DNA from: Escherichia phage inny
Direction: 5' to 3' (one strand)
Length of the DNA stretch: 64,000 nt
Sequence record: MN850601.1
Made by a program: the position numbers and the translations under genes
In this document: in pieces, positions 4,471-45,265 of the stretch
Numbering within the stretch: the stretch's first letter is position 1
Layout: each line of letters opens with the position of its first letter
The notes under the pieces: generated by a model
Told to the model about the DNA's origin: nothing
The model's database searches: none
The model's input: only the letters and a program-made list of their open reading frames with translations

Positions 4471-5283
4471 TTACTTAGTCAAATGATCTTCTATCATTTT
4501 TATGAAAGCAGGATTGCTAAAAGCATCTGCTGCCTTTTCTCTGTAAACAAAGACTCCTCTATCTTCGTAAAGAAGAGTTTCTTCGTAATTAATTCCTGGG
4601 TTAACAACAATCATTTTTGTACCCATATTAAGTGCAGGGAATAATTCCCAATTAAAATTGATAACTTGGTTTGAACATCCTACTACAACAACCAAATCTT
4701 GCATGGTCAAAGTATCAAACAAGTGAGCCATATCTGCATACAAAGGTGCAGCCTCACCAAAAAATACAACATTAGGCTTCACCCAGTTATAATCATCTAT
4801 GTTTATACTATTGTAACCAATATCTACCAGTGTTTTGTAATCTCCAGGATGCATACGGTAAACTACTTCAGGAAGATACCCGTGCACGTGAATAACAGAA
4901 TCCCTGTCCACACCTGCTCGCTCTAGTAGATCATCAACGTTTGTTGTCAAGTTTACTACTTGGTTAGGATATTCCTTAAACCACTTTGCTATTTGAATAT
5001 GTGCAGCATTAGGTTGTACATCTTTAAGCTCAACACGTCTTTTGTTATAAAATTCGTGTGTTTTGGCATACAAGTCCATACCGTTCTCGTCTACACCACC
5101 GACCACTGGAAGATCTGGAGATGTTCTCACACGATAACCTGCTTGGAAAGCTCCAATATCGCAGACCTCTTCTAAGTCATATTCTTCCCATAAGGCACGA
5201 CCACTATCTGTGTCTGTTCGGAACGTTCGAATCCCACTGTCTGCACTTAAACCTGCGCCACTAACAAAAATTACTCTTCGCAT
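4471..5283 (-). CDS. Sir2-family NAD-dependent protein (deacylase/ADP-ribosyltransferase-like)
   Basis: GAGLSADSGIRTFR (Sir2 GAGxS...GIPxFR), TTNVDDLLERAG (TQNxD), HVHG catalytic His, VVFFGE; only two Cys so no zinc ribbon. Confidence 0.75.
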   Translation of the reverse strand: MRRVIFVSGAGLSADSGIRTFRTDTDSGRALWEEYDLEEVCDIGAFQAGYRVRTSPDLPVVGGVDENGMDLYAKTHEFYNKRRVELKDVQPNAAHIQIAKWFKEYPNQVVNLTTNVDDLLERAGVDRDSVIHVHGYLPEVVYRMHPGDYKTLVDIGYNSINIDDYNWVKPNVVFFGEAAPLYADMAHLFDTLTMQDLVVVVGCSNQVINFNWELFPALNMGTKMIVVNPGINYEETLLYEDRGVFVYREKAADAFSNPAFIKMIEDHLTK

Positions 5284-6614: not shown

Positions 6615-7604
6615 CTATTCCTCCATACATTTAAGAATATGTGCAATGACAGGTATAGTCCAACCGTTACCTAACATCTTATATGCTTGTGTGTTACTAC
6701 TCACTTTAAAGTAGTCATCTGGCACACCTTGCAAGCGGCAACACTCTTTAACCGTTAACTTTCTATAATGTACGCCTTCACTCAATTTTTCAAAAGCATC
6801 TAGATATCTTCCAGGTGGAATGTAGGCTAATAGTACGTCTTTAGGCACAGTCGTGAGGCAACGAGTTTTTTCACTGTCCTGAACTTCCAAACAATGTACC
6901 AAACGATCAGTTTTAGATGTACTACGTTTGCCATTTTCATTAATTCTACGCCCATATATTGCTGCCGGATAAAAAACCAGTTGTCTGCGACTCTTTTCAA
7001 AATACTGTTCTATATTACCACCTTTGGCATAATTTGCATCTATGCAATAAGCCTTATCTCTGTCTACAATACTATCATCTTCAATGATATCTTGCAACAC
7101 TTCATTGGTAATCTCCCAGGGTTTTATTTCCCAGTTGCACCAGTATAAACGTTGTCTATTCTGTGCCGTGAAATCTGCGGAGTTAATGAATACGGGATCA
7201 ACACCTAAGTAACTTGTGATCACGTTTTCCCACTCCACTTTCATCTTAACGTTTTCAAGCATGAACTTAACATTAGGATTAAACTTTTTAATATGTTCAA
7301 GAATTTCAACATATTCGAAGAATAGTTTAGATCGCGGATCTTGAAAGTTCAAACCCTTACCAGAAGAAGAGAAGCCTTGACACGGACTACCACCTAACAA
7401 AAGATCAATTTCTCCCCACGGGATATCCCATTCTCTCCATTTTGTAACATCACCTAACTGAATAATATCTGGAAAATTTGCTTGGCTTTCAGCTACGGCA
7501 AATTTGTCTAATTCTGAAGCGTAATATGTATCTACTTCAATACCTGCACTTTTTAGCGCAAGCATTCCTCCTGACATACCATCAAAAAGACTTAAAACTT
7601 TCAT
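6615..7604 (-). CDS. DNA (cytosine-5)-methyltransferase
   Basis: C5-MTase motifs: LFDGMSGG (motif I), GGSPCQGFS (PCQ catalytic motif IV), ENV (motif VI). Confidence 0.85.
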   Translation of the reverse strand: MKVLSLFDGMSGGMLALKSAGIEVDTYYASELDKFAVAESQANFPDIIQLGDVTKWREWDIPWGEIDLLLGGSPCQGFSSSGKGLNFQDPRSKLFFEYVEILEHIKKFNPNVKFMLENVKMKVEWENVITSYLGVDPVFINSADFTAQNRQRLYWCNWEIKPWEITNEVLQDIIEDDSIVDRDKAYCIDANYAKGGNIEQYFEKSRRQLVFYPAAIYGRRINENGKRSTSKTDRLVHCLEVQDSEKTRCLTTVPKDVLLAYIPPGRYLDAFEKLSEGVHYRKLTVKECCRLQGVPDDYFKVSSNTQAYKMLGNGWTIPVIAHILKCMEE

Positions 7605-10514: not shown

Positions 10515-10837
10515 CTCTCCTCAAAATCCATAAGTATAAAGATATTAACTTTACCTTCTATATTATGTTCTACAACAAGATCTGCAAATTCTTTGTAGGC
10601 TTTTTCTTCTATTTGTTCAATGTGAGACGCTACATCTTTGTATATAGCGTCACCATCTACTTTAACAAGGAGGAATAGAGATCTTACTTCAATCTCTTTA
10701 TTTTTACGGGGTAGAAAATCGACGGCTTCTTGTATACGCCAGCCGAGATACCCTGGAGTCCTTTGAATATCCTCCAAATGACTTTCTAAGATTTCCCTTC
10801 CTTTGTCTATTAAAGCCTGTTCTGTCGTTATTTTCAT
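10511..10837 (-). CDS. hypothetical protein (108 aa)
   Basis: ORF track. Confidence 0.45.
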   Translation of the reverse strand: MKITTEQALIDKGREILESHLEDIQRTPGYLGWRIQEAVDFLPRKNKEIEVRSLFLLVKVDGDAIYKDVASHIEQIEEKAYKEFADLVVEHNIEGKVNIFILMDFEES

Positions 10838-10847
10838 CCCCTTCTCC

Positions 10848-11420
10848 TTAATGTGTTAATGAAACTGCGTAGCTAAACACAGGTTCAGATATTACATCGG
10901 CTACAGTAATAAAAACGTCTTCGTCTTGAGTTGTTTCTACACGACATACAGTTACACCATTCACCACGAATTCAACGCAATGTGGAATATCTTCACAAAC
11001 GAAGGTAGTGTAAGTAACACCCAAAGCATCATACAAAGATTTAACAGTGTTTGCAAGTGCCGCAGTTTCTTCTTTTTCTGAGACAATGAATGCTGTAACA
11101 ACAAGATTGTTTGCATAGTTTAGACTGTCCTCTATAGCCAATGATTTACAAGGTAGTAATGCAAAATATTTACCTGGTTTAATCAGACCTGCTTCCCATT
11201 GATTCAAAATTGCCTGGGATGGTTTAGTAATATAAAACAGATTTTCACTTGGGTTATCAATATTACTTCTGGCGATACAACGTGAAGGATTATTAATATC
11301 AAATACATGATCAAAATCTACACAAACAGGTAAACTGAAAGGTGTGAATTTTTTACCTAATAATCCTATGGCTGATAATATGTTTGCTGTGCTTATCTTC
11401 CCGTTAAAAGCTAAACGCAT
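10848..11420 (-). CDS. hypothetical protein (190 aa)
   Basis: ORF track. Confidence 0.45.
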   Translation of the reverse strand: MRLAFNGKISTANILSAIGLLGKKFTPFSLPVCVDFDHVFDINNPSRCIARSNIDNPSENLFYITKPSQAILNQWEAGLIKPGKYFALLPCKSLAIEDSLNYANNLVVTAFIVSEKEETAALANTVKSLYDALGVTYTTFVCEDIPHCVEFVVNGVTVCRVETTQDEDVFITVADVISEPVFSYAVSLTH

Positions 11421-11431
11421 ATTTAACTCCT

Positions 11432-11635
11432 TTAACTAGCAACCGTAACTTCCGAACTTTCTTCTTTCGTACTGTCTACGATATGCCTGGTGGCAATATA
11501 CGAGACTTGCCAGTTACCATCTGGTGTAGTCTCAATAAGTACCCTATCTACTTCGAGAAAATGCAAAAATTCAACCATCGCTCGCTTCGATAGGAATTGT
11601 TTTTTAACAGTCTCCTCAAAAGATTGAACTGCCAT
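11432..11635 (-). CDS. hypothetical protein (67 aa)
   Basis: ORF track. Confidence 0.4.
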   Translation of the reverse strand: MAVQSFEETVKKQFLSKRAMVEFLHFLEVDRVLIETTPDGNWQVSYIATRHIVDSTKEESSEVTVAS

Positions 11636-32425: not shown

Positions 32426-33148
32426 TTAAGCAATGATTGCTGCGATATTAGGTTTAACAAAGGTAGATGGTTTCATAATTTTACCTTTGTCATCAAAGAA
32501 TACGTATACCTTTTGAACTTCGTTATATACAGCATGTACCCCAGTATAAGAACCTTCTGCACGATCTTTGCTTCGCATCTCGATAGCATCGCACTCTTTT
32601 TCAAGAGCTTCAATAATATCCTTAGTTTCCCAAATAGCCAGGAGTTGCTTCTTGGTAGGATACTTGGACTCATTGCTATTCAACACTTCACGCATAACCT
32701 TCTTCTCGTTATAAACAGAACGCACCAAAGTATCTCGTGCCATACGGGTAAGTGTAAGAGACATTAAGGCAAATTGCAAGTCATTTTCTACCATTTTATC
32801 AAATTCAATGATAACATCGTAAATGTTCTCTGCCAGAACATCTCCTGTTGGCATTTCCAGAGCTTTATCAACACCTTCTTTACCAAAGAACATAAATGCC
32901 AGGTAGGATGCTACCACAAAAATATCTGCTGCTGCATCAAGTAATTCAACGTGATCATTTTCCTGTGCTGCTGCTTGAAACTCTTTAAGTTCTTCTCGTA
33001 CAAAAGAAAGTTGAGCTTCAAACATCTCTTGAGTAAATTCTGGGGTTACTCCACCACGTGCCTTAGCATTCCAAGCAACAATTTGATCGGCAGTTTTGAT
33101 AAAGAAGCTATTGTCCACTTTTACTTGTTTGAAAAAATTCTCGATCAT
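32426..33148 (-). CDS. MazG-like nucleotide pyrophosphohydrolase domain protein (putative)
   Basis: REELKEF...ELLDAAADI resembles MazG/all-alpha NTP-PPase ExxE...ExxD metal-binding helices; weak. Confidence 0.35.
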   Translation of the reverse strand: MIENFFKQVKVDNSFFIKTADQIVAWNAKARGGVTPEFTQEMFEAQLSFVREELKEFQAAAQENDHVELLDAAADIFVVASYLAFMFFGKEGVDKALEMPTGDVLAENIYDVIIEFDKMVENDLQFALMSLTLTRMARDTLVRSVYNEKKVMREVLNSNESKYPTKKQLLAIWETKDIIEALEKECDAIEMRSKDRAEGSYTGVHAVYNEVQKVYVFFDDKGKIMKPSTFVKPNIAAIIA

Positions 33149-33345: not shown

Positions 33346-34461
33346 TTACTCTGCTGGTTCCCAAGTACCTGGAATCATCTTACGTACACGTACCCCAACA
33401 GGCTTGGTAGGAATACCTTCGTCTGAAAATTCTTCGTACTCTATTTCAACAAATTGACCAATAAGTGTCAAAGCATTTTCTTCTTTACGATAGTTAATGG
33501 TTTCATCTGAATCCTTACGCATCAGGAATTCGACTACTTTACCATTTTCCATCTCTCCTGTCAATACCCCGTCACCATTTTTATCACGCTTTGCACTTAC
33601 CACTTTAACTTCAAGCGTCTGCCGTGGTTTACGTTTAATAACATCATAAGAACGTTTATCGAATTCGTAAACACCTTTTGCGTTACGATACACCACACCT
33701 TCCGCTTTCTCACGTAGAGCTTTTGCATAGAAAGCATCAAACTGTTCTTGGTTTTCAATGTACTCTGTATGTACTACACAAATAAGTTCATCTAAACCTT
33801 TATCTTCAACAACTTCTTTTAGAGCAGCCAAAACTTGAACCCTCTTCTCAAATGGTACAGATGCCACAGGAACATCATATACATAGTATTTAAGAAGTGG
33901 TGTGTTAGCATTATGCTTTTTCCACGCACTATTAATTTGTTGAAGGCTAAGGACACCCAAACCAGCAAAAACTTCACCGTCAAGAGGATGACCAACTACT
34001 TCTTTAATGAAGGTTGGAATTTCTTCCCAGTGAGGTGGAAGTTTATATACCTCCCCAGCTTTAGATAAACATTCACCTTGCATGTTAATCATTGAACGTA
34101 GACCATTCAATTTATATTGTGCATAACCAGGGAACAAAACACGATCAGCATAATCTTTATAATCCTGACATTTCATGGGTGTGGAAGGAACATGGTTTTC
34201 AGCTTCCTCTTTTGTTTTATAGTACCCATTCTTAAGTTGCTTTGTCCATTTGGCAAGAGCTTCTATTTCAGCTTGTTCTTCTGCTGTTGTTTCATTTGAG
34301 CGACCAATATTTTTAGGTTCTGCCGTATAAGATTTGCTAGTGATCTTTCCACCTAATTGACCATGAGCAACAGTTACAACACTACCTTCGGTATAGACTG
34401 ACCACTGTCTAATTTTACCTGTAGAAGTTTTACCATATAATGTAGGATTAGTTTGTTTCAT
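33346..34461 (-). CDS. ATP-dependent polynucleotide ligase (DNA-ligase-like) with atypical motif I KLNGLR
   Basis: Motif I YKLNGLR (Asn where KxDGxR has Asp), motif III PLDGEVFA, motif IV EGVVYRN, motif V DVIKRKP, C-terminal OB-like; start trimmed to ATG after GGAGG. Confidence 0.65.
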   Translation of the reverse strand: MKQTNPTLYGKTSTGKIRQWSVYTEGSVVTVAHGQLGGKITSKSYTAEPKNIGRSNETTAEEQAEIEALAKWTKQLKNGYYKTKEEAENHVPSTPMKCQDYKDYADRVLFPGYAQYKLNGLRSMINMQGECLSKAGEVYKLPPHWEEIPTFIKEVVGHPLDGEVFAGLGVLSLQQINSAWKKHNANTPLLKYYVYDVPVASVPFEKRVQVLAALKEVVEDKGLDELICVVHTEYIENQEQFDAFYAKALREKAEGVVYRNAKGVYEFDKRSYDVIKRKPRQTLEVKVVSAKRDKNGDGVLTGEMENGKVVEFLMRKDSDETINYRKEENALTLIGQFVEIEYEEFSDEGIPTKPVGVRVRKMIPGTWEPAE

Positions 34462-34651
34462 CTTTAACCTCCAGTTGCGAAAGAACCCATTTAGCCATTT
34501 CAATTTCACCGTGTAGTCTGCCTAGTTCATAGGCATCATCAATATTACCACCAGTGTAATCATCCACCATAAAGTAAGGATCTTCACTACTGTTAGGCGC
34601 GTTTGCAATTCTCGTTAGTTCTTCAATAAATGTCATAGTTAACCTTACCAA
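34448..34651 (-). CDS. hypothetical acidic protein (67 aa)
   Basis: ORF track. Confidence 0.4.
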   Translation of the reverse strand: MVRLTMTFIEELTRIANAPNSSEDPYFMVDDYTGGNIDDAYELGRLHGEIEMAKWVLSQLEVKDETN

Positions 34652-35202: not shown

Positions 35203-35607
35203 TTATTGTAGCTTAAGTGAACTGCGAAGACGTTCCTCTTGCTGATCACGAATATGTTGTGGAACCTCATGAATTGAATCGTTACCGTGCCTATTCTCCA
35301 CAACTAAAGAAATAACTTGATAACCAAACTCTTCAGCAAGAGTTAAATAAGGTTTAAGTTCTTTTTCTGTAGTAGAGGTATTAGAAACAATAATCTTTTC
35401 AACACCATACTGCATATATTTTTGTACTTTGACACGACACCATTGGTGTGCTTTATGGATATTCTCTTGTTTCCACTCATACACACCATCTTCAGTGTAG
35501 TGGTATTGATCTGCCTCACAAATAGGCCAATGATTTTCAGAGATAATTTCTGCTACTGTAGATTTACCTGCACCTGAAACACCACGTAAAATGATAAGTT
35601 GTTTCAT
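35203..35607 (-). CDS. P-loop polynucleotide kinase-like protein (Pnk kinase domain-like)
   Basis: MKQLIILRGVSGAGKSTVAEII resembles T4 Pnk N-terminal kinase P-loop; immediately follows ligase gene. Confidence 0.6.
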   Translation of the reverse strand: MKQLIILRGVSGAGKSTVAEIISENHWPICEADQYHYTEDGVYEWKQENIHKAHQWCRVKVQKYMQYGVEKIIVSNTSTTEKELKPYLTLAEEFGYQVISLVVENRHGNDSIHEVPQHIRDQQEERLRSSLKLQ

Positions 35608-36540
35608 TTAGCCTCCAAAGAAGTTTTCTATTTCTTTACGTCGCTCTTGTGGATCGAGAGCAGCCCATTGAGCCTTCGTAAATTTATTTCGAAGCCATTC
35701 TAGCAAAGTATAATATTCTTCGTCAACAATTTGTTTAGCATTGTTTGGGTTGTCCCAAATCATATCCCACTTCTTATTGCCACCACGCATAAGGAATTTC
35801 TTAGCAAGATAGTATGGTGACTTAATCTTTAAGAGTAAGTTAAACGGATAGTTTGTTTCACGAACAACAAAGCCTTCGTGTCTACAATGTTTAGACATTT
35901 CAACAACATCTGAAAATTTAATCATTGGATAAACTTCAGGACGTTTAAATTTTGTAATAGATGCAATCCCATCAAGAACACCTTCAGGTAACATGAAACT
36001 TGTCCCATCAAGATTTTGAATTCTTGCTCCAATTAAGTATGCGCCTGGTTCTTCTTCGACAATATGTGGATCAGAAGGATCACAGATTTCAAAAAGGAAA
36101 GTTGCTTTTGCACTTTCTGTCCACTTAATGAAATACTCTATGTCATCACACTCGGAAACAATACGGTTCTTGGCAATAGTTGCAAAGTCTGACTCTAGGC
36201 TCCCTGTTGTTGATACAACAAGTTGCCCTTTGTACACACCTACAGATGCCATAAAACCGTTTACTTTACGGACAGCATCTACAAATTCATCTCCTGGAAG
36301 ATCTGTACCATTCTCAAAACGATTAAAGATTTTAGTAAAAGGCCAAATAACAATATTATCTTCTGAATCAACAACCAACCCACGACAATCTAAAAGTCGT
36401 TTGTCAACGTTCCACAAGTTATCCCAGAATACATTGTTTTTGTATTTAAGTACAGCAAGACCAGCATACTCTCCAGATTTAACTTCTTTTTTATGCACTA
36501 AACCTTTTGCAATCAGGTCATCACAATTGAACTTAGCCAC
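35608..36540 (-). CDS. RNA ligase-like nucleotidyltransferase (Rnl family, motif I KVNG)
   Basis: VRKVNGFMASV (KxNG motif I), EGFVVRE (motif IV), LLLKIK (motif V); flanked by kinase and phosphoesterase. Confidence 0.55.
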   Translation of the reverse strand: MAKFNCDDLIAKGLVHKKEVKSGEYAGLAVLKYKNNVFWDNLWNVDKRLLDCRGLVVDSEDNIVIWPFTKIFNRFENGTDLPGDEFVDAVRKVNGFMASVGVYKGQLVVSTTGSLESDFATIAKNRIVSECDDIEYFIKWTESAKATFLFEICDPSDPHIVEEEPGAYLIGARIQNLDGTSFMLPEGVLDGIASITKFKRPEVYPMIKFSDVVEMSKHCRHEGFVVRETNYPFNLLLKIKSPYYLAKKFLMRGGNKKWDMIWDNPNNAKQIVDEEYYTLLEWLRNKFTKAQWAALDPQERRKEIENFFGG

Positions 36541-36541
36541 C

Positions 36542-37093
36542 TTAATCTCCTTTGATTATCTTATGATGATCTACAACAATAATATCACGCTTATCCATAA
36601 TAGAGATGATTTCGTCAAAATGTAAGATTTTCCCGTGTGCATCCCAACCAACATCCAACATTTTCCCATACAAATGATCAGGGAATGATCCGTGAGAGTG
36701 TCCGTGTAGCATGATTGATCCATGCCCTTGTTTATTCCAGGCAGCCATAGGGTAATGACTTAAGACGAAGAACAGCTTCTGATATTTCACTTCGTCATAA
36801 TACACAACTTCTCCATACTCTGCAAGCACTTTTCTGTGTTTACTGTAATCATGGTTCCCAACACAGTAAGTAATATCCCCTTGGAGACGGGAAGCAATCT
36901 TACGGGTATCTTCTTCAGTCCCGAAACAGAAGTCCCCAAGATGGTACATCTTTACTCCTGGTGTTGTGGCACATTTATTCCATGCTTCGATCAGTGCTTC
37001 TGTCATATGCTCCATATCTTCCCACGGGCGATATTCAGGAGCAAACTCTCGGATACGTTTGTGCATAAAATGCAAATCACTTGTAATAAACAT
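36542..37093 (-). CDS. calcineurin-like metallophosphoesterase
   Basis: SDLHF, GDFCFG, GNHDY, HGHSHG metal-binding motifs. Confidence 0.75.
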   Translation of the reverse strand: MFITSDLHFMHKRIREFAPEYRPWEDMEHMTEALIEAWNKCATTPGVKMYHLGDFCFGTEEDTRKIASRLQGDITYCVGNHDYSKHRKVLAEYGEVVYYDEVKYQKLFFVLSHYPMAAWNKQGHGSIMLHGHSHGSFPDHLYGKMLDVGWDAHGKILHFDEIISIMDKRDIIVVDHHKIIKGD

Positions 37094-37452
37094 TAGTATA
37101 ATCCCTCGCTGAATAGTTCACTGTTGTGACCATTTCTTTCGTAGTTAATTTGTTTGGCGTTATCTGCAATGATATAAGCATCTTTGCGACTCCACCAGTT
37201 ATAATACTGATCAATAAACCCTTGATTATCAGGTAAGCAAAACAGTTTATCAATCAATCCTGCATCTTTTAAAACATTAAGTTGTGCAGATAGTACAGGA
37301 TTTGCATGCCTAACACAAGGAATAATTAACTCTTCGCCATTATTGAGAATATACTTATTCGCAGCGCAGACTATAACACGTTGAGCATAGTGATCCTCAC
37401 CAAGCCAAGTAAGAGGTTGGTAACAAATATCATGTTGATTAGTAGCGCACAT
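37093..37452 (-). CDS. hypothetical protein (about 119 aa)
   Basis: ORF track 37093-37455 (TTG) trimmed to adjacent ATG. Confidence 0.45.
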   Translation of the reverse strand: MCATNQHDICYQPLTWLGEDHYAQRVIVCAANKYILNNGEELIIPCVRHANPVLSAQLNVLKDAGLIDKLFCLPDNQGFIDQYYNWWSRKDAYIIADNAKQINYERNGHNSELFSEGLY

Positions 37453-37601
37453 CAATTTTCTCCATACTCTTTTAATCTATCAGCGAAAAAACTGTAATCA
37501 GGAAGTAAAAGATCATTACTCGTATCGCTACAGTTTTCTTCCTCTTTATAGATAAAATGCCCTTCATCCTCTTCTTGCTCTGACCAAACTGAGTAATGCA
37601 T
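37452..37601 (-). CDS. small acidic protein (49 aa)
   Basis: Hand-translated; TGATG stop/start overlap with downstream gene suggests coupling; below ORF-track cutoff. Confidence 0.35.
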   Translation of the reverse strand: MHYSVWSEQEEDEGHFIYKEEENCSDTSNDLLLPDYSFFADRLKEYGEN

Positions 37602-37610
37602 AATACCTAC

Positions 37611-37985
37611 TTAATAGTTAACACGTTTAATTTCAACACCATAGGATGAAATAAAATTTTCCTTAGCTAACATATATTTACCAGCAGCAGAAGGATTTGA
37701 TGTATGAACATAGATAGTTTTAAGAGCATCCCATTCACCAGCGTACAACATACATTCTACATCTAAGAACGCATGATAGCCTTCTTGATCTTCTCCAAGA
37801 TCATTATCGAAGTGTATTTCTGAGATATTATTGAAATTATCTTCATCTGAAACAAAAGATGACCAATCCCCAAAAGATTTTAACCAAATGGCATCCTCAT
37901 AACCATAATCTTTAGGATCTCTTAAATCGTCTAACCAAATAATTTTAGCCACTATCAACCCCCTTCCTGTTTCTCTTCTTTCCAA
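37611..37985 (-). CDS. hypothetical protein (124 aa)
   Basis: ORF track. Confidence 0.45.
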   Translation of the reverse strand: MERRETGRGLIVAKIIWLDDLRDPKDYGYEDAIWLKSFGDWSSFVSDEDNFNNISEIHFDNDLGEDQEGYHAFLDVECMLYAGEWDALKTIYVHTSNPSAAGKYMLAKENFISSYGVEIKRVNY

Positions 37986-39999: not shown

Positions 40000-40893
40000 A
40001 TGAAAGTTAGTATTCTACATGGTGTTGACTGTTATGTTACTGATGTAGACGTTAAAGTCTTTACATTCTCTGGTGGAGAACAACATGTTCAACTAGACAC
40101 GAATCTATCAGGTTTCAATCATGCTACAGACAGAATCTTACTCTCTTTAGAAGTAAGATCTGCTAAAGACTTGATGACTTTGGTTATGACTAAGAATGCA
40201 TTGGACAATATGCTATATCATAAACCATATTGTGTTGATTTACTCATGTTGTATGTGCCGTATGCACGACAAGACAGAGTGTGTGAGCCTGGGGAAGCAT
40301 TCGGAGTTAAAGCCTTTGCTTCTATAATTAATTCATTAAATTTCTCACGTGTTATCGTTGCTGATCCACATAGTGATGTTACTCCGGCAGTGTTTGACAG
40401 ACTCTGTGTAATACCTCAAGAAGAGATTGCTTACGAAACTTTAAAGTGGAAGTTACGTATGGAGAATTTTGCTCTTGTTAGTCCTGATGGTGGTGCTCTT
40501 AAGAAAATATTTAAATTATCTAAGAAAATGTCTTTAGATGTGTTCTGTGCAGAGAAGGTTAGAGATACTGCAACAGGTGCTATTGTTCGTACAGACATTT
40601 CTGTACAGGATTTCAATAAGCGTAACCTGATGATCGTAGATGATATCTGTGACGGCGGTAGAACTTTTATTGAATTGGCTAAAGTGCTACGTGCTCGTAA
40701 CGCAGGTAAGATTGAGTTATATGTTACACACGGTATCTTTTCTAAAGGTCTTAAAGAGTTAAGTGAGCACTTTGACTGCATTCATTCTCTTAATGTGTGG
40801 GAAGATAACATCCAAGAAGATTCCGGTGTTCTTGTTAAGAATCAGTCAGATTTGCAACAACAAATTGTATCTCCATACGTGTGGAATTTTTAA
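40000..40893 (+). CDS. ribose-phosphate pyrophosphokinase family protein (Prs-like; candidate ADP-ribose pyrophosphokinase of an NAD+ reconstitution pair)
   Basis: PRPP-synthetase-like motifs VADPHSD and MIVDDICDGGRTF; 297 aa; AGGAGA RBS. Confidence 0.8.
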   Translation: MKVSILHGVDCYVTDVDVKVFTFSGGEQHVQLDTNLSGFNHATDRILLSLEVRSAKDLMTLVMTKNALDNMLYHKPYCVDLLMLYVPYARQDRVCEPGEAFGVKAFASIINSLNFSRVIVADPHSDVTPAVFDRLCVIPQEEIAYETLKWKLRMENFALVSPDGGALKKIFKLSKKMSLDVFCAEKVRDTATGAIVRTDISVQDFNKRNLMIVDDICDGGRTFIELAKVLRARNAGKIELYVTHGIFSKGLKELSEHFDCIHSLNVWEDNIQEDSGVLVKNQSDLQQQIVSPYVWNF

Positions 40894-40964: not shown

Positions 40965-42698
40965 ATGAATATTTTTGCACCTTTTGCTACTGATTGGTAT
41001 AAACCTGGTCACAAGCAGATGTACAACCAAAATACAAAACTCATTTTCTCTAATTTAACTCCTCGTAATGATAAAAACTTTGCACACTATGCAGATCGTG
41101 AAGCACGTGGTGTAATTGTTTTAGGTATTCGTCGAGCAGTTACTGATGCTCTTGTAACTATGTGGGATAGCTTCTTTAAAATGTCTCGTAGTGCAGCAGT
41201 AAATAAATTTTATCGTATGTCTAAAAATGCATTAGGTGCTTCTGCTCCTTCTGCTGAATGTTGGGGAGAATTGCACGATTTAGGTTATCTTCCGCTGGAA
41301 GTTCGATCTCTGCCAGAAGGTGTTTTGTGTCCTATTGGTGTTCCTGTGTTTACTGTGCATAATACTTTAGAAAAATTCTTTTGGTTAACTAACTATGTGG
41401 AAACACTATTGTCAGATGAAACTTGGAAGACAATGACTAATGCTACAGCAGCTTTTCAGTATAAGCGTATTGCTATGGCATATGCGATGGCAACGTGTGA
41501 TAATATTGATCATGTTAACTTCCAGTGTCATGATTTTAGCCTACGTGGTTTAAGTAATATCGAAGATGGTTATAAGAGTGGTATCGCTCATTTGGCATCT
41601 TTCACAGGAACAGATAACATTCTGGCTATTGAGACTGTGCATGATTATTATGGTATTGATTATGATCAGTTTGTTGCAGGTTCTATTCCGGCAACAGAAC
41701 ATTCAGTAGCAACGACTAACATTGGAGCTATTGTTGAAGATCTGAAGAAACATTTCCCACATCTTAAAGATGATGTTGATGGGCTTCGTTATGTAGCAGA
41801 GAAAGAGTTTCTTCGCCGCTATATTGAAGAAATTGTTCCAGAAGGTTTTTGTTCATATGTAGCAGATTCTTATGACTACTGGGCTGTCTTGACTCGCATT
41901 CTGGTCGAGTTGAAAGATTCCATTATGTCACGAAATGGTCGTCTTGTTATTCGTCCAGATTCAGGAGATCCGGTTAAAGTTGTTGCAGGATACAATGTTG
42001 AATCTTTTGATAACTATGAAGACCTTTTAAATAATGGTATTGCTACAGCCACTGAAGTAGTTCATTTGGCTGATGTTAATAAGTATTACAATGTTCTTCA
42101 GGATTGCAGTGTTGCTGATTGTATTGATGAAACTTATGAGATTCCTTATTGTGAAGCAGTAGGTTCTATTCAAATCCTTTGGGAAGTGTTTGGTGGTACT
42201 ATCAACCGAAAAGGCTACAAGGTTCTTGATCAGCACATCGGTATGATTTATGGTGATTCTATTACTGTTGAACGAGAACACGAAATCTTACGCCGACTGA
42301 AGAAGAAAGGTTTTGCAGCTTCCAATATTGTATTTGGTGTTGGTAGTTATACTTATCAGTTCAATACACGAGATACTTTTGGTTTTGCTGTTAAAGCAAC
42401 AGGTAGTATCATCGGTGAACACGAAATTTTGGTAAGTAAGGAGCCTAAAACTGATCCTGGTAAACGTTCTGCAAAAGGTTTTATTAAGGTTGTTAAGGAT
42501 ACAAACGGTAAACTTTCTCTCGTGGATAATCTTTCTTTTAAAGATATTCAAGATGAAGACAATGAGTTAAAAGTTATCTTCAGGGATGGTACGGTTATTA
42601 CACCACAAGTAGAAGGACGTGATGAAACATTTACGGATATCCGCAATCGTGTTGATGTAGAGGTTCTTCGTACTATGGGAACCATCCAGGTTGACTAA
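40965..42698 (+). CDS. nicotinamide phosphoribosyltransferase family protein (NadV/NAMPT-like; candidate nicotinamide ADP-ribose transferase)
   Basis: N-terminal FATDWYKPGHK (NAMPT DxYKxxH), 577 aa, family-typical size. Confidence 0.8.
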   Translation: MNIFAPFATDWYKPGHKQMYNQNTKLIFSNLTPRNDKNFAHYADREARGVIVLGIRRAVTDALVTMWDSFFKMSRSAAVNKFYRMSKNALGASAPSAECWGELHDLGYLPLEVRSLPEGVLCPIGVPVFTVHNTLEKFFWLTNYVETLLSDETWKTMTNATAAFQYKRIAMAYAMATCDNIDHVNFQCHDFSLRGLSNIEDGYKSGIAHLASFTGTDNILAIETVHDYYGIDYDQFVAGSIPATEHSVATTNIGAIVEDLKKHFPHLKDDVDGLRYVAEKEFLRRYIEEIVPEGFCSYVADSYDYWAVLTRILVELKDSIMSRNGRLVIRPDSGDPVKVVAGYNVESFDNYEDLLNNGIATATEVVHLADVNKYYNVLQDCSVADCIDETYEIPYCEAVGSIQILWEVFGGTINRKGYKVLDQHIGMIYGDSITVEREHEILRRLKKKGFAASNIVFGVGSYTYQFNTRDTFGFAVKATGSIIGEHEILVSKEPKTDPGKRSAKGFIKVVKDTNGKLSLVDNLSFKDIQDEDNELKVIFRDGTVITPQVEGRDETFTDIRNRVDVEVLRTMGTIQVD

Positions 42699-43445: not shown

Positions 43446-43521
43446 GGTTCCATAGCTCACTGACGAGAGCGCACACCTCATAAGTGTCGAGGGCAGGGAT
43501 TGTAACCCTGGGGAACCACCA
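43446..43521 (+). tRNA. tRNA-like gene, anticodon CAT (Met or Ile2), non-canonical T-loop ATTGTAA
   Basis: Hand fold: acceptor GGTTCC/GGAACC, D-arm GCTC...GAGC, anticodon loop CTCATAA, T-stem CAGGG/CCCTG, encoded ACCA end. Confidence 0.45.
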
Positions 43522-43552
43522 TTTAAAAGGAGGTGCTATGCATCTCCTATAT

Positions 43553-43638
43553 GCAAGTGTGGTGGAATTGGTGATACACATTGTGCTTAAAACGCAACGC
43601 TTAAATGATTGAGGGTTCGAATCCCTCCACTTGCACCA
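43553..43638 (+). tRNA. tRNA-Leu (anticodon TAA), type II
   Basis: Hand fold: acceptor GCAAGTG/CACTTGC, anticodon loop CTTAAAA, long variable arm, T-arm GAGGG-TTCGAAT-CCCTC, encoded CCA. Confidence 0.75.
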
Positions 43639-43640
43639 AC

Positions 43641-43746
43641 GCCTAGTAGGGTATTTGGTAATTCCGAGGCCATCAAAGCCTGAAAAATATGTTAGACCGT
43701 TTTGTCTAACTAAATACGAAATATGGTTCGATTCCATAACTAGGCT
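43641..43746 (+). tRNA. atypical long tRNA-like gene (106 nt); possible anticodon TCA (opal-reading) - uncertain
   Basis: Perfect acceptor GCCTAGT/ACTAGGC and T-arm TATGG-TTCGATT-CCATA; candidate anticodon loop CATCAAA; 7-bp hairpin in extended variable region; no encoded CCA. Confidence 0.3.
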
Positions 43747-43781
43747 CCCGATTTAAATAGTAATTTTTTAATAAAAATATC

Positions 43782-43810
43782 TTGACATTTACTTAGTTTT
43801 TTGTTATAGT
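43782..43810 (+). promoter_or_regulatory. sigma70-like promoter (TTGACA-N17-TATAGT)
   Basis: Near-consensus; transcript would start right at tRNA-like gene at 43822. Confidence 0.55.
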
Positions 43811-43821
43811 CATTATGAAAA

Positions 43822-43903
43822 CGGGGTGTATCTCACCTGACTTCTAATCAGGCGTTAACCGAGTAATTGGAGTATGCAGGTTCGAATCCTGTCACCCCGG
43901 CCA
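43822..43903 (+). tRNA. tRNA-Arg-like (anticodon TCT) with non-canonical architecture (no D-arm, 23-nt insert before T-arm)
   Basis: Perfect acceptor CGGGGTG/CACCCCG, anticodon arm CCTGA-CTTCTAA-TCAGG, T-arm GCAGG-TTCGAAT-CCTGT, encoded CCA; only 7 nt between acceptor and anticodon stem. Confidence 0.4.
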
Positions 43904-43920
43904 AAAAGTTTTAAAAACTA

Positions 43921-43949
43921 CTTGACAAGCAAGATAGTTTTATGTTAGA
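43921..43949 (+). promoter_or_regulatory. sigma70-like promoter (TTGACA-N17-TTAGAT)
   Basis: Consensus -35; upstream of tRNA-Ser. Confidence 0.45.
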
Positions 43950-43965
43950 TTTAAAGTATGGTAAC

Positions 43966-44055
43966 AGGAAGGTAGGGCGCAGCGGTGCGCAACCAGGTTT
44001 GAACCCTGGCCCATTGTAGCGATACGGTGATGGTTCGACTCCATTATCTTCCTCC
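43966..44055 (+). tRNA. tRNA-Ser (anticodon TGA), type II
   Basis: Hand fold: acceptor GGAAGGT/ATCTTCC, anticodon arm CCAGG-TTTGAAC-CCTGG, long variable arm, T-loop TTCGACT, encoded CCA. Confidence 0.65.
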
Positions 44056-44236
44056 AAATTCGCTTAGGAGCTTTATGAATTATAAAACTATTGGACAGAT
44101 TGTTACCGGAGTTAAGATTGTAAATAATAAAGTTGTTTATGAGTATTCTAATCTTCAACAATCTGAAGATGGTAAGAATATTCGTATGGTAAAAGCAGAA
44201 CAAAAAGATTCCGGTTGTTTTGAATAATTAAGAACG

Positions 44237-44321
44237 GTAGATTGGTGAAATGGTAGCCACAACAGTTTGCTAAACTGTCGTCGGAAACGGCGTGTAGGTT
44301 CAAGTCCTACATCTACCGCCA
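44237..44321 (+). tRNA. tRNA-Ser (anticodon GCT), type II
   Basis: Hand fold: acceptor GGTAGAT/ATCTACC, anticodon arm ACAGT-TTGCTAA-ACTGT, variable hairpin CGTCG-GAAA-CGGCG, T-arm GTAGG-TTCAAGT-CCTAC, CCA. Confidence 0.7.
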
Positions 44322-44491
44322 AGTTATCTTTAATGTAGCTTGTTGCTCTTAGTTGCTTGGTGTAACTTTTTGGAAGGATGGCTGCAACCATCTTACTTTA
44401 ATAGAGTAAACTTTCGGCAGATGGCCCCCACCATCTTACCGATACCTCATAGTTAGTGGTGCGAACACTGGCTATTTTAAAGATAATTTAT
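44322..44491 (+). other. unassigned structured spacer inside tRNA array (two GATGG-loop-CCATCTTAC hairpins)
   Basis: Repeated motif CCATCTTAC and hairpins resembling the 3' end of adjacent tRNA-Ser; no complete cloverleaf found by hand. Confidence 0.3.
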
Positions 44492-44567
44492 ACATCGTTA
44501 GCTTAGTTGGTAGAGCAAGGGGCTTTTAACTCCAAGGTCGAAGGTTCGAATCCTTCACGATGTACCA
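44492..44567 (+). tRNA. tRNA-Lys (anticodon TTT)
   Basis: Hand fold: acceptor ACATCGT/ACGATGT, D-arm GCTT-AGTTGGTA-GAGC, anticodon loop CTTTTAA, T-arm GAAGG-TTCGAAT-CCTTC, CCA. Confidence 0.7.
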
Positions 44568-44572
44568 AACAC

Positions 44573-44659
44573 GTAGGTATCGCATAGCGGCAATTGCTGG
44601 AGACTGTAAATCTCCTGCCCTTCGGGGCTTCGTTGGTTCGAGTCCAACTACCTGCACCA
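44573..44659 (+). tRNA. tRNA-Tyr (anticodon GTA), type II
   Basis: Hand fold: acceptor GTAGGTA/TACCTGC, anticodon arm GGAGA-CTGTAAA-TCTCC, variable hairpin, T-arm GTTGG-TTCGAGT-CCAAC, CCA. Confidence 0.7.
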
Positions 44660-44666
44660 AATTAAA

Positions 44667-44751
44667 GATGGATTGGCCTAGTGGTTGGGCGACGGACTGT
44701 TAATCCGTGAACGAAAGTTCTAGCAAGGTTCAAATCCTTGATCCATCGCCA
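44667..44751 (+). tRNA. tRNA with Asn-type anticodon arm (GTT) but long 15-nt variable arm
   Basis: Hand fold: acceptor GATGGAT/ATCCATC, anticodon arm ACGGA-CTGTTAA-TCCGT, variable hairpin GAAC-GAAA-GTTC, T-arm CAAGG-TTCAAAT-CCTTG, CCA. Confidence 0.6.
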
Positions 44752-44830
44752 AATAGTGCTTGTAGAGTTAATAGAAACCTCTAGAATTTTCTAGAATTGT
44801 AGGTATCAAATCCTACCAAGCAAATATTTT

Positions 44831-44905
44831 GCTCCTATCGTATAACGGCTATTACGGTTGCCTTGTAAGCAACTTATCAGGGTTCGAGTCCTTGTGGGAG
44901 CACCA
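44831..44905 (+). tRNA. tRNA-Thr (anticodon TGT)
   Basis: Hand fold: acceptor GCTCCTA/TGGGAGC, anticodon arm GTTGC-CTTGTAA-GCAAC, T-arm CAGGG-TTCGAGT-CCTTG, CCA. Confidence 0.7.
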
Positions 44906-44927
44906 ATTTAACTCTAAAGGAGTGTAT

Positions 44928-45251
44928 GTGACAGAAAAAGAGTTAGAGAAATATTTTAATATCAATGTTTTCGATGGTTTTGATGATATTGAAGATGTTG
45001 AAAGATATTATGAAGTAGAGTTAGATAAGGATAACATTGTAATTCTTTCTGCCACTTATGATTGTGCATATTATGAAGGCGAATCTCACGTTTATTTCTA
45101 TGATATGAAAACATCTTTGTTTTATGAAGTACACGCATATCATTGTTCTTGTTATGGCTTAGAAGGTCAGTGGGAACCTGAAGAAATAGGTGATTTGAGC
45201 TTTACGGTTGCATATCTAAACAGACGTGGTGCATCTACTATTTTAAAATAA
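44928..45251 (+). CDS. hypothetical protein embedded in tRNA array (about 107 aa)
   Basis: ORF track 44829-45251 trimmed to GTG after AAGGAG RBS to avoid overlap with tRNA-Thr; Cys/His/Tyr-rich. Confidence 0.45.
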   Translation: MTEKELEKYFNINVFDGFDDIEDVERYYEVELDKDNIVILSATYDCAYYEGESHVYFYDMKTSLFYEVHAYHCSCYGLEGQWEPEEIGDLSFTVAYLNRRGASTILK

Positions 45252-45265
45252 ATATTAAAAGCCTC

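Follow-up and report, generated by a model that had tools for sequence, protein, structure and literature searches.

Three adjacent genes of Escherichia phage inny encode a predicted split RNA end-healing and sealing cassette

Phage T4 counters the PrrC anticodon nuclease with two enzymes, Pnkp (pseT) and Rnl1 (gp63), which to our knowledge constitute the only phage repair answer characterised so far. In bacteria, the Pnkp/Hen1 system of Clostridium thermocellum and the Pnkp1-Rnl-Hen1 complex of Capnocytophaga comprise a P-loop kinase, a calcineurin-type metallophosphoesterase and an ATP-dependent ligase. Healing and sealing by three activities is also performed by Trl1 of fungi and plants, which possesses ligase, kinase and cyclic phosphodiesterase domains, together with Tpt1; Trl1 requires a 2'-phosphate end, for whose recognition its C-terminal domain uses R334 and R337, and this phosphate is later removed by Tpt1. 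A phage neighbourhood consisting of a T4-like tRNA ligase, a 'cyclic-phosphate processing receiver' (cREC) domain protein, a nucleotide kinase, MazG and a calcineurin-like phosphoesterase has been described from rV5 and Proteus phage Mydo (Iyer et al. 2022, Viruses 14:1977, section 3.7.3), and its description as an RNA-repair system is purely computational. The tRNA-cutting defences of E. coli are many, including PrrC-like RloC, Cas13, PARIS, retron-Septu, HepS and others (recent preprint). In this study, a window of 64,000 nucleotides from Escherichia phage inny (MN850601.1), the whole stretch of DNA analysed, was investigated with a focus on three adjacent minus-strand genes encoding a metallophosphoesterase, an RNA ligase and a P-loop kinase; coordinates are window positions unless another locus is named. 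We consider it likely, with a probability of roughly 0.7, that these genes, expressed within a single long minus-strand operon of a phi92-like (Justusliebigvirus) phage, specify a pathway split over three proteins that heals and seals the ends of broken RNA.

The first gene of the cassette (36542-37093, minus strand) encodes a binuclear metallophosphoesterase of 183 amino acids (aa) with the motifs TSDLHF, GDF, GNHD and GHSHG, assigned to phrog_547. It is followed by a gene with a GTG start (35608-36540, minus strand) for an Rnl1-type ATP-dependent RNA ligase of 310 aa, carrying RKVNGF and the Pfam domain PF09511, and by a gene (35203-35607, minus strand) for a stand-alone P-loop kinase of 134 aa with RGVSGAGKST, AAA_33 and phrog_505. 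On the coding strand, the junction between the upstream Arn.3-like gene and the phosphoesterase gene is TAATG, an overlap of one base; the junction between phosphoesterase and ligase is TAA-G-GTG, with AAAGGAGA ahead of it; and that between ligase and kinase is TAAATG, preceded by GGAGG. The three genes are tightly coupled at the level of translation. A reading made from the letters alone (the sequence-only reading) had described three contiguous minus-strand genes with coupled stops and starts, and had set three separate polypeptides against the T4-style pair of Pnkp and Rnl1; three separate open reading frames (ORFs) with tight junctions were found at exactly these coordinates, and all the motifs it quoted (SDLHF/GDF/GNHD/GHSHG, KVNG and GVSGAGKST) are present in the translations. 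The cassette lies inside a long minus-strand transcription block that starts at a divergent intergenic region near 39.6-40.0 kb, and a consensus scan of the block region gave no promoter- or terminator-like sites above shuffle expectation. The 2.5 kb around the cassette share 99.4% identity with Escherichia phage EmilieFrey (BASEL phage Bas61, genus Justusliebigvirus) and 97.8% with phage phi92. Five proteins were run against NCBIfam, and a usable family was obtained for none of them.

The ligase passed the Pfam cut-off for RNA_lig_T4_1 (53.0 bits against 28.3; E 5.6e-14; residues 52-244), and its PHROG label is 'RNA ligase and tail fiber protein attachment catalyst'. Its family is large, with 2574 proteins at E<=1e-3 in a word-indexed search, and 6548 cluster representatives (clusters at 50% identity) at E<=1e-3 and 472 at <=1e-30 in an exhaustive search. 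A single-sequence phmmer search of the ligase against the PDB returned nothing meaningful and a family profile was needed; this profile matched T4 Rnl1 (2C5U, E 1.2e-9) and, by sequence, did not match Trl1. In an alignment of 24 members, R53, K70, F72, K92, N94, G95, E151, E222, G223, K238 and K240 are invariant. In the profile alignment, R53, K70, F72 and K92 fall on R54, K75, F77 and K99 of T4 Rnl1, and E151, E222, G223, K238 and K240 on E159, E227, G228, K240 and K242, respectively; G102 of T4 Rnl1 is also among the positions covered by invariant residues. These T4 residues we take to be essential, following the mutagenesis work of the Shuman laboratory. All of the nucleotidyltransferase motifs I (KVNG, with K92), III, IV and V are present, together with the upstream residues specific to Rnl1. 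An AlphaFold model of the ligase, with a predicted local distance difference test score (pLDDT) of 90.6, has T4 Rnl1 and the ligase domain of Trl1 (Trl1-LIG) as its nearest folds, equally near, and resembles Rnl1 more than it does DNA ligases or any of the families Rnl2, Rnl3, Rnl4 and Rnl5. Past motif V, just behind which the sequence alignment with T4 Rnl1 ends, the model continues for only some 65 helical aa, and in the 24-member alignment this C-terminal module carries the invariant basic residues K247, K248, R252, K257 and R300. Because of the Pfam score, the invariant residues on T4 Rnl1 sites and the confident model, the protein is placed in the Rnl1/Trl1 clade, as expected of a ligase of RNA-ligase type with KVNG as motif I, and a sealing activity is predicted for it.

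For the kinase, Pfam gave only the generic AAA_33 (1.8e-10), and PHROGs gave phrog_2071 'ATPase' and, more weakly, phrog_505 'polynucleotide kinase' (1.3e-9). An alignment of 38 homologues from related loci showed R8, G9, G14, K15, D33, Y43, Y87 and H113 to be invariant, as is the P-loop pattern R8-G9-x4-G14-K15-S/T. With the family profile, the T4 Pnk kinase domain is matched along its entire length (1LY1, 1.6e-8); further matches are Pnkp1 from the Pnkp1-Rnl-Hen1 complex (1.3e-7), the C. thermocellum kinase CthPnk (2e-6), Mucorales RNA 5'-kinases, PSTK and mammalian PNKP, and there are weak ones to the kinases of nicotinamide riboside and gluconate. Aligned to 1LY1 through this profile, D33 falls on D35 of T4 Pnk, which, like D38 of the C. 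thermocellum enzyme, is the catalytic aspartate that activates the 5'-OH. In the AF2 model (pLDDT 91.5), the nearest folds found by Foldseek are CthPnk, with a template modelling (TM) score of 0.78, and T4 Pnk (TM 0.75-0.78); the best 15 matches are all polynucleotide kinases, followed by a Mucorales RNA kinase and PSTK, and deoxynucleoside monophosphate (dNMP) kinases are absent from the region near the top of the Foldseek list. The likeness to the T4 Pnk kinase domain that had been noticed from the letters was therefore borne out by both profile and fold, and the outcome that would have spoken against it, a dNMP kinase, is argued against by a profile and a model that are both nearest to T4 Pnk and CthPnk. 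Sequence and model together support a predicted 5'-OH polynucleotide kinase.

The phosphoesterase was assigned by its motifs and its closest structural match rather than by a Pfam threshold. It scored 20.6 bits against Metallophos_2, below the cut-off of 27, and matched phrog_547 'phosphoesterase' at 8.5e-55. The five metal-binding and catalytic motifs DxH, GD, GNH[DE], H and GHxH are all present, and across 39 homologues H8, D54, N80, H81, H113, H132 and H134 are invariant and D6 occurs in at least 90%; the protein is thus a calcineurin-like phosphoesterase, as first suspected, with the full and conserved motif set of a binuclear metal site. Its profile strongly matches aq_1665 of Aquifex aeolicus (1XM7, 9e-24), a structural-genomics protein on which no functional literature was found. 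The next matches, to GpdQ-like and YfcE-like enzymes, are only weak, and neither 4J6O (the CthPnkp phosphatase) nor 1G5B (lambda phosphatase) was matched at E<=1. The predicted role is healing of the 3' end, as a 2',3'-cyclic phosphodiesterase and/or a 3'-phosphatase; since the assayed enzymes were not matched, this role is suggested by context and not by homology.

A total of 80 viral loci holding a homologue of the ligase (39-98% identity) were used to analyse gene linkage. Homologues of the kinase and the phosphoesterase were found in 75 and 64 of them, respectively; at a distance of up to 1 kb from the ligase, the kinase was present in 69 loci, the phosphoesterase in 53 and both in 48. With M, L and K denoting phosphoesterase, ligase and kinase, the gene orders were MLK in 36 loci, KLM in 22, KL in 14 and a few others. 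The density within 1.5 kb of the ligase was 0.30/kb for the kinase and 0.25/kb for the phosphoesterase, compared with 0.003/kb beyond 3 kb in the same loci, an enrichment of about 80-90-fold near the ligase, and the arrangement is more than chance.

The same activities have also been joined in single proteins. Kinase-ligase fusions were identified in 11 loci, ten of 421-432 aa and one ending at a contig edge; in Pfam, the fusion of locus L060 shows AAA_33 and RNA_lig_T4_1, and that of L049 the kinase domain only. Among the best 150 family representatives, two proteins of 444 and 477 aa carry the reverse order, ligase-kinase, and about 25 proteins of 700-812 aa combine AAA_33, Metallophos and RNA_lig_T4_1. 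In cellular genomes, this tri-domain form is found mainly in Leptolyngbyaceae cyanobacteria. The protein of Leptolyngbya sp. PCC 7375 (712 aa; locus L102, 4768-6906, plus strand) matches CthPnk with its kinase domain (3.5e-11) and 4J6O with its phosphatase domain (2.5e-24), and at its C-terminus it carries a domain homologous to the window ligase, of Rnl1 type and not of the Pnkp ligase family; about 25 other Leptolyngbyaceae loci (L085-L116) have such a Pnkp-like tri-domain protein. No Hen1 is visible beside the gene in L102; downstream of it, the opposite strand encodes a nucleotidyltransferase-like protein. In addition, phrog_8238 (an 'RNA ligase' of 737 positions) matches the window kinase at positions 1-109 and the window ligase at 432-712. 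That linkage is kept through rearrangement and that fusion has occurred repeatedly speaks more strongly than anything else found here for a single pathway in which the three proteins would act.

Two further features of the fusion-bearing contigs were recorded. A transfer-messenger RNA (tmRNA) gene lies about 5 kb downstream of the kinase-ligase fusion (L055 14189-14591, L060 10399-10801, L063 12657-13053 and L066 13208-13610), with the tag peptide AANDANYGDYALAA or ANDDVYNLALAA. The L049 contig encodes a different, second RNA ligase (10530-11609, plus strand; RNA_ligase PF09414 with a PHA02142 OB-fold domain), located 1.7 kb downstream of the fusion and directly followed by a phosphoribosyl pyrophosphate (PRPP) synthetase gene.

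From the family assignments, the intact catalytic residues, the linkage and the fusions, we infer the activities of the three enzymes, tRNA as their substrate and a counter-defence role against host nucleases, as follows. The kinase would phosphorylate the 5'-OH end of a broken RNA. The metallophosphoesterase would open and remove a 2',3'-cyclic phosphate or a 3'-phosphate, leaving a 3'-OH,2'-OH end, possibly with help from the cREC protein. The Rnl1-type ligase would then adenylate itself on Lys92, transfer the AMP to the 5'-phosphate and seal the break. In this way the cassette most likely re-joins RNAs, probably tRNAs, that host defence nucleases have cut. In the rV5-like phage Bas54, the genes bas54_0207 and bas54_0209-bas54_0211 (sirtuin, RNA ligase, polynucleotide kinase and phosphoesterase) accept abundant transposon insertions on E. 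coli K-12 (HIDEN-SEQ preprint), as expected for accessory or counter-defence genes.

Several observations weigh against this reading. The phosphoesterase belongs to the uncharacterised aq_1665 clade and not to the clade of lambda phosphatase and CthPnkp. The ligase module of about 65 aa showed no alignment to the tRNA-specificity domain of T4 Rnl1, which spans about 120 aa (~255-374). In the kinase, H36 and D110 stand at the positions aligned with Arg38 and Arg126 of T4 Pnk, which are polynucleotide-binding residues, and therefore these two classical substrate-binding arginines are not conserved; R106, aligned with T4 R122, is invariant only among the closer homologues and is replaced in distant members, which have an invariant H113-x-V-P motif. 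The Bas54 mutants in the genes named above were not significantly depleted on two uropathogenic isolates (HIDEN-SEQ preprint), which leaves the cassette without a known target among host nucleases. The literature yielded neither a biochemical nor a genetic test for any member of the ligase, kinase or phosphoesterase clades.

A different use of the same proteins has been published as an NAD+-dependent, yeast-like pathway (Iyer et al. 2022). Here the cREC protein or the metallophosphoesterase would open the cyclic phosphate to a 2'-phosphate,3'-OH end, the kinase would make the 5'-phosphate, and the Rnl1/Trl1-like ligase would seal the break with the 2'-phosphate left at the junction; a phage Sir2 would then transfer this phosphate to NAD+ in the manner of Tpt1/KptA, with NAD+ supplied by phage PRPP synthetase and nicotinamide phosphoribosyltransferase (Nampt). 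Several genes of the window suit this proposal. The cREC domain protein (37611-37985, minus strand; Pfam cREC_REC 4.1e-13) is encoded upstream of the cassette, with a start that the record of a relative annotates at the equivalent of window position 37952. Its homologue in Seunavirus-like and rV5-like loci (L005-L009, L014 and L016) lies between ligase and kinase or directly after the ligase, and because of this position cREC is counted as a probable accessory member of the cassette. A Sir2-family protein of 270 aa (4471-5283, minus strand; Pfam SIR2 1.3e-22), the only Sir2 homologue in the window, shares 55% identity with the PVP-SE1 Sir2 that is encoded directly after the kinase; in PVP-SE1 and rV5-like phages (Vequintavirinae), Sir2 follows the kinase or the cREC gene. 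PRPP synthetase (40000-40893, plus strand), divergent from the block and beside it, is adjacent to Nampt (40965-42698, plus strand), with which it forms an NAD+ salvage pair, and 33 of the 80 loci have a prs homologue no more than 8 kb from the ligase, often at 0.1-1.7 kb. A gene for a C-5 cytosine DNA methyltransferase (6615-7604, minus strand; 1.7e-43) was also observed two genes from Sir2.

The distribution of these partners speaks the other way. Of the 80 loci, only 11 have Sir2 and only 10 have cREC alongside the ligase, all of them from enterobacterial myoviruses, and it is the triad of kinase, ligase and phosphoesterase that appears as the conserved core. A distance of about 30 kb separates Sir2 from the kinase in the window, the two genes being in one minus-strand block with Sir2 at its far end; Sir2 may work together with the cassette, though it is unlinked here. 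Because of this restriction to enterobacterial myoviruses and the missing linkage, Sir2 and cREC look like additions to a self-sufficient core. Lambda phosphatase and the CthPnkp phosphatase have 2',3'-cyclic phosphodiesterase activity, and a Pnkp-type metallophosphoesterase can strip the phosphate fully (Keppetipola and Shuman 2007), which would make a 2'-phosphotransferase unnecessary. Moreover, the ligase profile matches T4 Rnl1 and no Trl1, and the 2'-phosphate arginines of Trl1 could not be placed on the much shorter C-terminal module of the window ligase. The NAD+-dependent route keeps some likelihood since the ligase structure is as near to Trl1 as to T4 Rnl1; overall we regard it as unlikely. 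A combined view, also decidedly unlikely, holds that the triad is the core of a very large phage RNA-repair family and that enterobacterial myoviruses may have extended it with cREC and Sir2 into an NAD+-consuming Trl1/Tpt1-like route. If this were true, sealing by the ligase would take place at 2'-phosphate ends, and the role of RNA 2'-phosphotransferase would fall to the sirtuin, fed by phage PRPP synthetase and Nampt, which would mean a new enzymatic activity for a sirtuin and the first yeast-type tRNA ligation pathway outside eukaryotes.

It is also conceivable that the genes are neighbours without a common pathway. The phosphoesterase might then degrade nucleotide second messengers or small phosphodiesters and so counter signalling-based defence, the kinase might be a nucleotide or nucleoside kinase (e.g. 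in NAD or deoxynucleoside triphosphate salvage), and the ligase might have a separate role such as the tail-fibre attachment of T4 gp63. The PHROG label of the ligase, the weak matches of the kinase to nicotinamide riboside and gluconate kinases, the aq_1665 clade being without a known substrate and the NAD-salvage genes nearby are consistent with this. We consider it very unlikely: kinase and ligase are fused in both orders, and kinase, phosphoesterase and ligase are fused as well, the linkage survives shuffled gene orders, and, over the full length of the kinase, its sequence and fold are best matched by polynucleotide or tRNA kinases. With respect to tail fibres, T4 rnlA tolerates no insertions in its N-terminal catalytic domain whereas the Bas54 ligase gene does tolerate insertions, which argues against an essential role in virion assembly. 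It is highly improbable that the substrates of the cassette are DNA ends (5'-OH and 3'-phosphate nicks), healed and sealed in replication or recombination as by mammalian PNKP with a DNA ligase: DNA ends are also substrates of T4 Pnkp and CthPnk, the kinase profile has mammalian PNKP among its matches and the block lies among genes for an exonuclease, a recombination protein (both as annotated in EmilieFrey) and a DNA ligase, but the latter is a dedicated ATP-dependent enzyme (33346-34509, minus strand; phrog_114, 7.4e-75) encoded separately 1 kb from the cassette, which we count in favour of an RNA role, and the recurrent partners cREC, tRNA arrays and tmRNA are RNA-related. Both the unrelated-gene and the DNA-repair explanations fit the fusions and the fold data poorly, and the split RNA-repair pathway is retained as the preferred reading.

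The remaining neighbours of the cassette were also surveyed. Directly upstream, a T4 Arn.3-like protein of 120 aa is encoded (37093-37455, minus strand; phrog_839, 5.9e-47), the stop of its gene overlapping the phosphoesterase start. A total of 1535 phage records, most of them from T4-like phages, contain homologues, which go under the names 'Arn.3' or 'anti-restriction nuclease' and have PF26092 as a precomputed assignment; the Pfam copy searched gave no match. This gene was considered as a fourth component and rejected, being found with the ligase in only three of the 80 loci and being mainly a gene of T4-like phages. A small ORF of 49 aa (37452-37601, minus strand), hypothetical in EmilieFrey, has a homologue in one of the 80 loci. 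Downstream of the cassette there are three small ORFs, one of them coiled-coil, and further on a MazG-like nucleotide pyrophosphohydrolase (32426-33148, minus strand), a partner listed in the published rV5-type neighbourhood.

On the plus strand, an array of 15 phage tRNA genes (43446-46196; ARAGORN and Rfam) was identified, which forms part of the context and not of the cassette. The sequence-only reading had seen in such an array a sign of a tRNA-centred conflict with the host; the 15 genes are there, and the conflict is something that we infer from them rather than observe. In the 8-kb flanks of the ligase, tRNA or tmRNA genes are present in 31 of 60 diverged loci, as a raw count, and five of the 60 have tRNA arrays of 10-18 genes. 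This context fits a translation-centred module, for which the array would be a possible substrate pool. Within the array, a tRNA-like element at 43822-43900 was reported by Rfam and missed by ARAGORN, tRNA-Met (43446-43521) and tRNA-Ser (43967-44056) were reported by ARAGORN and are not in the Rfam result, and tRNA-Asn(GTT) (44667-44751) is unusually long at 85 nucleotides. In several marine or environmental phage contigs, suppressor-type tRNAs (CTA 'Pyl' and TTA 'Stop') lie near the cassette (L027 13546-13621, L041 12979-13053, L056 15172-15247 and L034 11183-11255), and stop codons may be recoded in those phages.

The cassette is real and widespread, and it is not new, since both the annotation of its genes and the prediction of RNA repair (Iyer et al. 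2022) are already public. EmilieFrey carries bas61_0244 'putative phosphoesterase', bas61_0243 'RNA ligase' and bas61_0242 'polynucleotide kinase' in the same order. Phage Paula, and by BLAST labels also phi92 (gp095-gp097), have 'putative RNA ligase / RNA repair' with the neighbour 'putative Phosphoesterase', and rV5-like records hold the same genes under similar names, one of them with a 'cyclic-phosphate processing receiver domain-containing protein'. As a finding from a genome scan, the present one mainly re-derives this existing annotation and published prediction. What is added here is a quantitative measure of linkage and a catalogue of fusions, including Pnkp-like proteins with an Rnl1-type ligase domain; sequence comparison further suggests that the phosphoesterase belongs to the uncharacterised aq_1665 clade and that the conserved core is formed by the triad rather than by the sirtuin. 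The cassette would represent a second and far more widespread predicted solution beside that of T4, and it is present in tractable phages, namely Bas54 and Bas61 of the BASEL collection, phi92 and rV5. Biochemical work would give the aq_1665 metallophosphoesterases a first function and decide between a T4-like and an NAD+-dependent route.

Compared with the described systems, the window cassette shares the repair logic of T4 Pnkp and Rnl1 and differs from it in construction. It consists of three polypeptides instead of two; its phosphatase is a binuclear metallophosphoesterase, whereas T4 has a DxDxT (HAD) domain fused to Pnk, and no HAD domain turned up in those window proteins that were scanned, the kinase standing alone with 134 aa. 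Equivalents of Arg38 and Arg126 are missing from the aligned positions of the kinase, the ligase ends in a helical tail of about 65 aa in place of the T4 specificity domain of about 120 aa, and the T4 system has PrrC as its cognate nuclease while none is known for the window cassette. In comparison with the rV5/Mydo neighbourhood, all five gene types are present in the window between 32426 and 37985; the defining sirtuin, which adjoins there, is 30 kb away here, and the calcineurin-like enzyme, described as 'occasional' there, is a constant partner in our sample (64 of 80 loci). With Trl1, the cassette shares a ligase fold as near to Trl1-LIG as to T4 Rnl1 and a kinase profile that matches the Trl1-type RNA kinases of Mucorales; Trl1 uses a 2H cyclic phosphodiesterase where the cassette has a metallophosphoesterase, and neither a 2H nor a Tpt1 homologue was seen in the cassette. 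The bacterial Pnkp systems have the same three kinds of enzyme. Of all structures, CthPnk is nearest to the window kinase model (TM 0.78), and relatives of the window ligase form the C-terminal domain of tri-domain proteins whose first two domains are CthPnkp-like; the window phosphoesterase is aq_1665-like and not lambda-phosphatase- or CthPnkp-like, the window genes are separate and not fused, and no Hen1 or other methyltransferase was found among the neighbours scanned (32.4-40.9 kb). The cassette is a split and mixed form of two experimentally known systems, in which a ligase of the T4 kind is combined with a phosphatase of the superfamily used by bacterial Pnkp.

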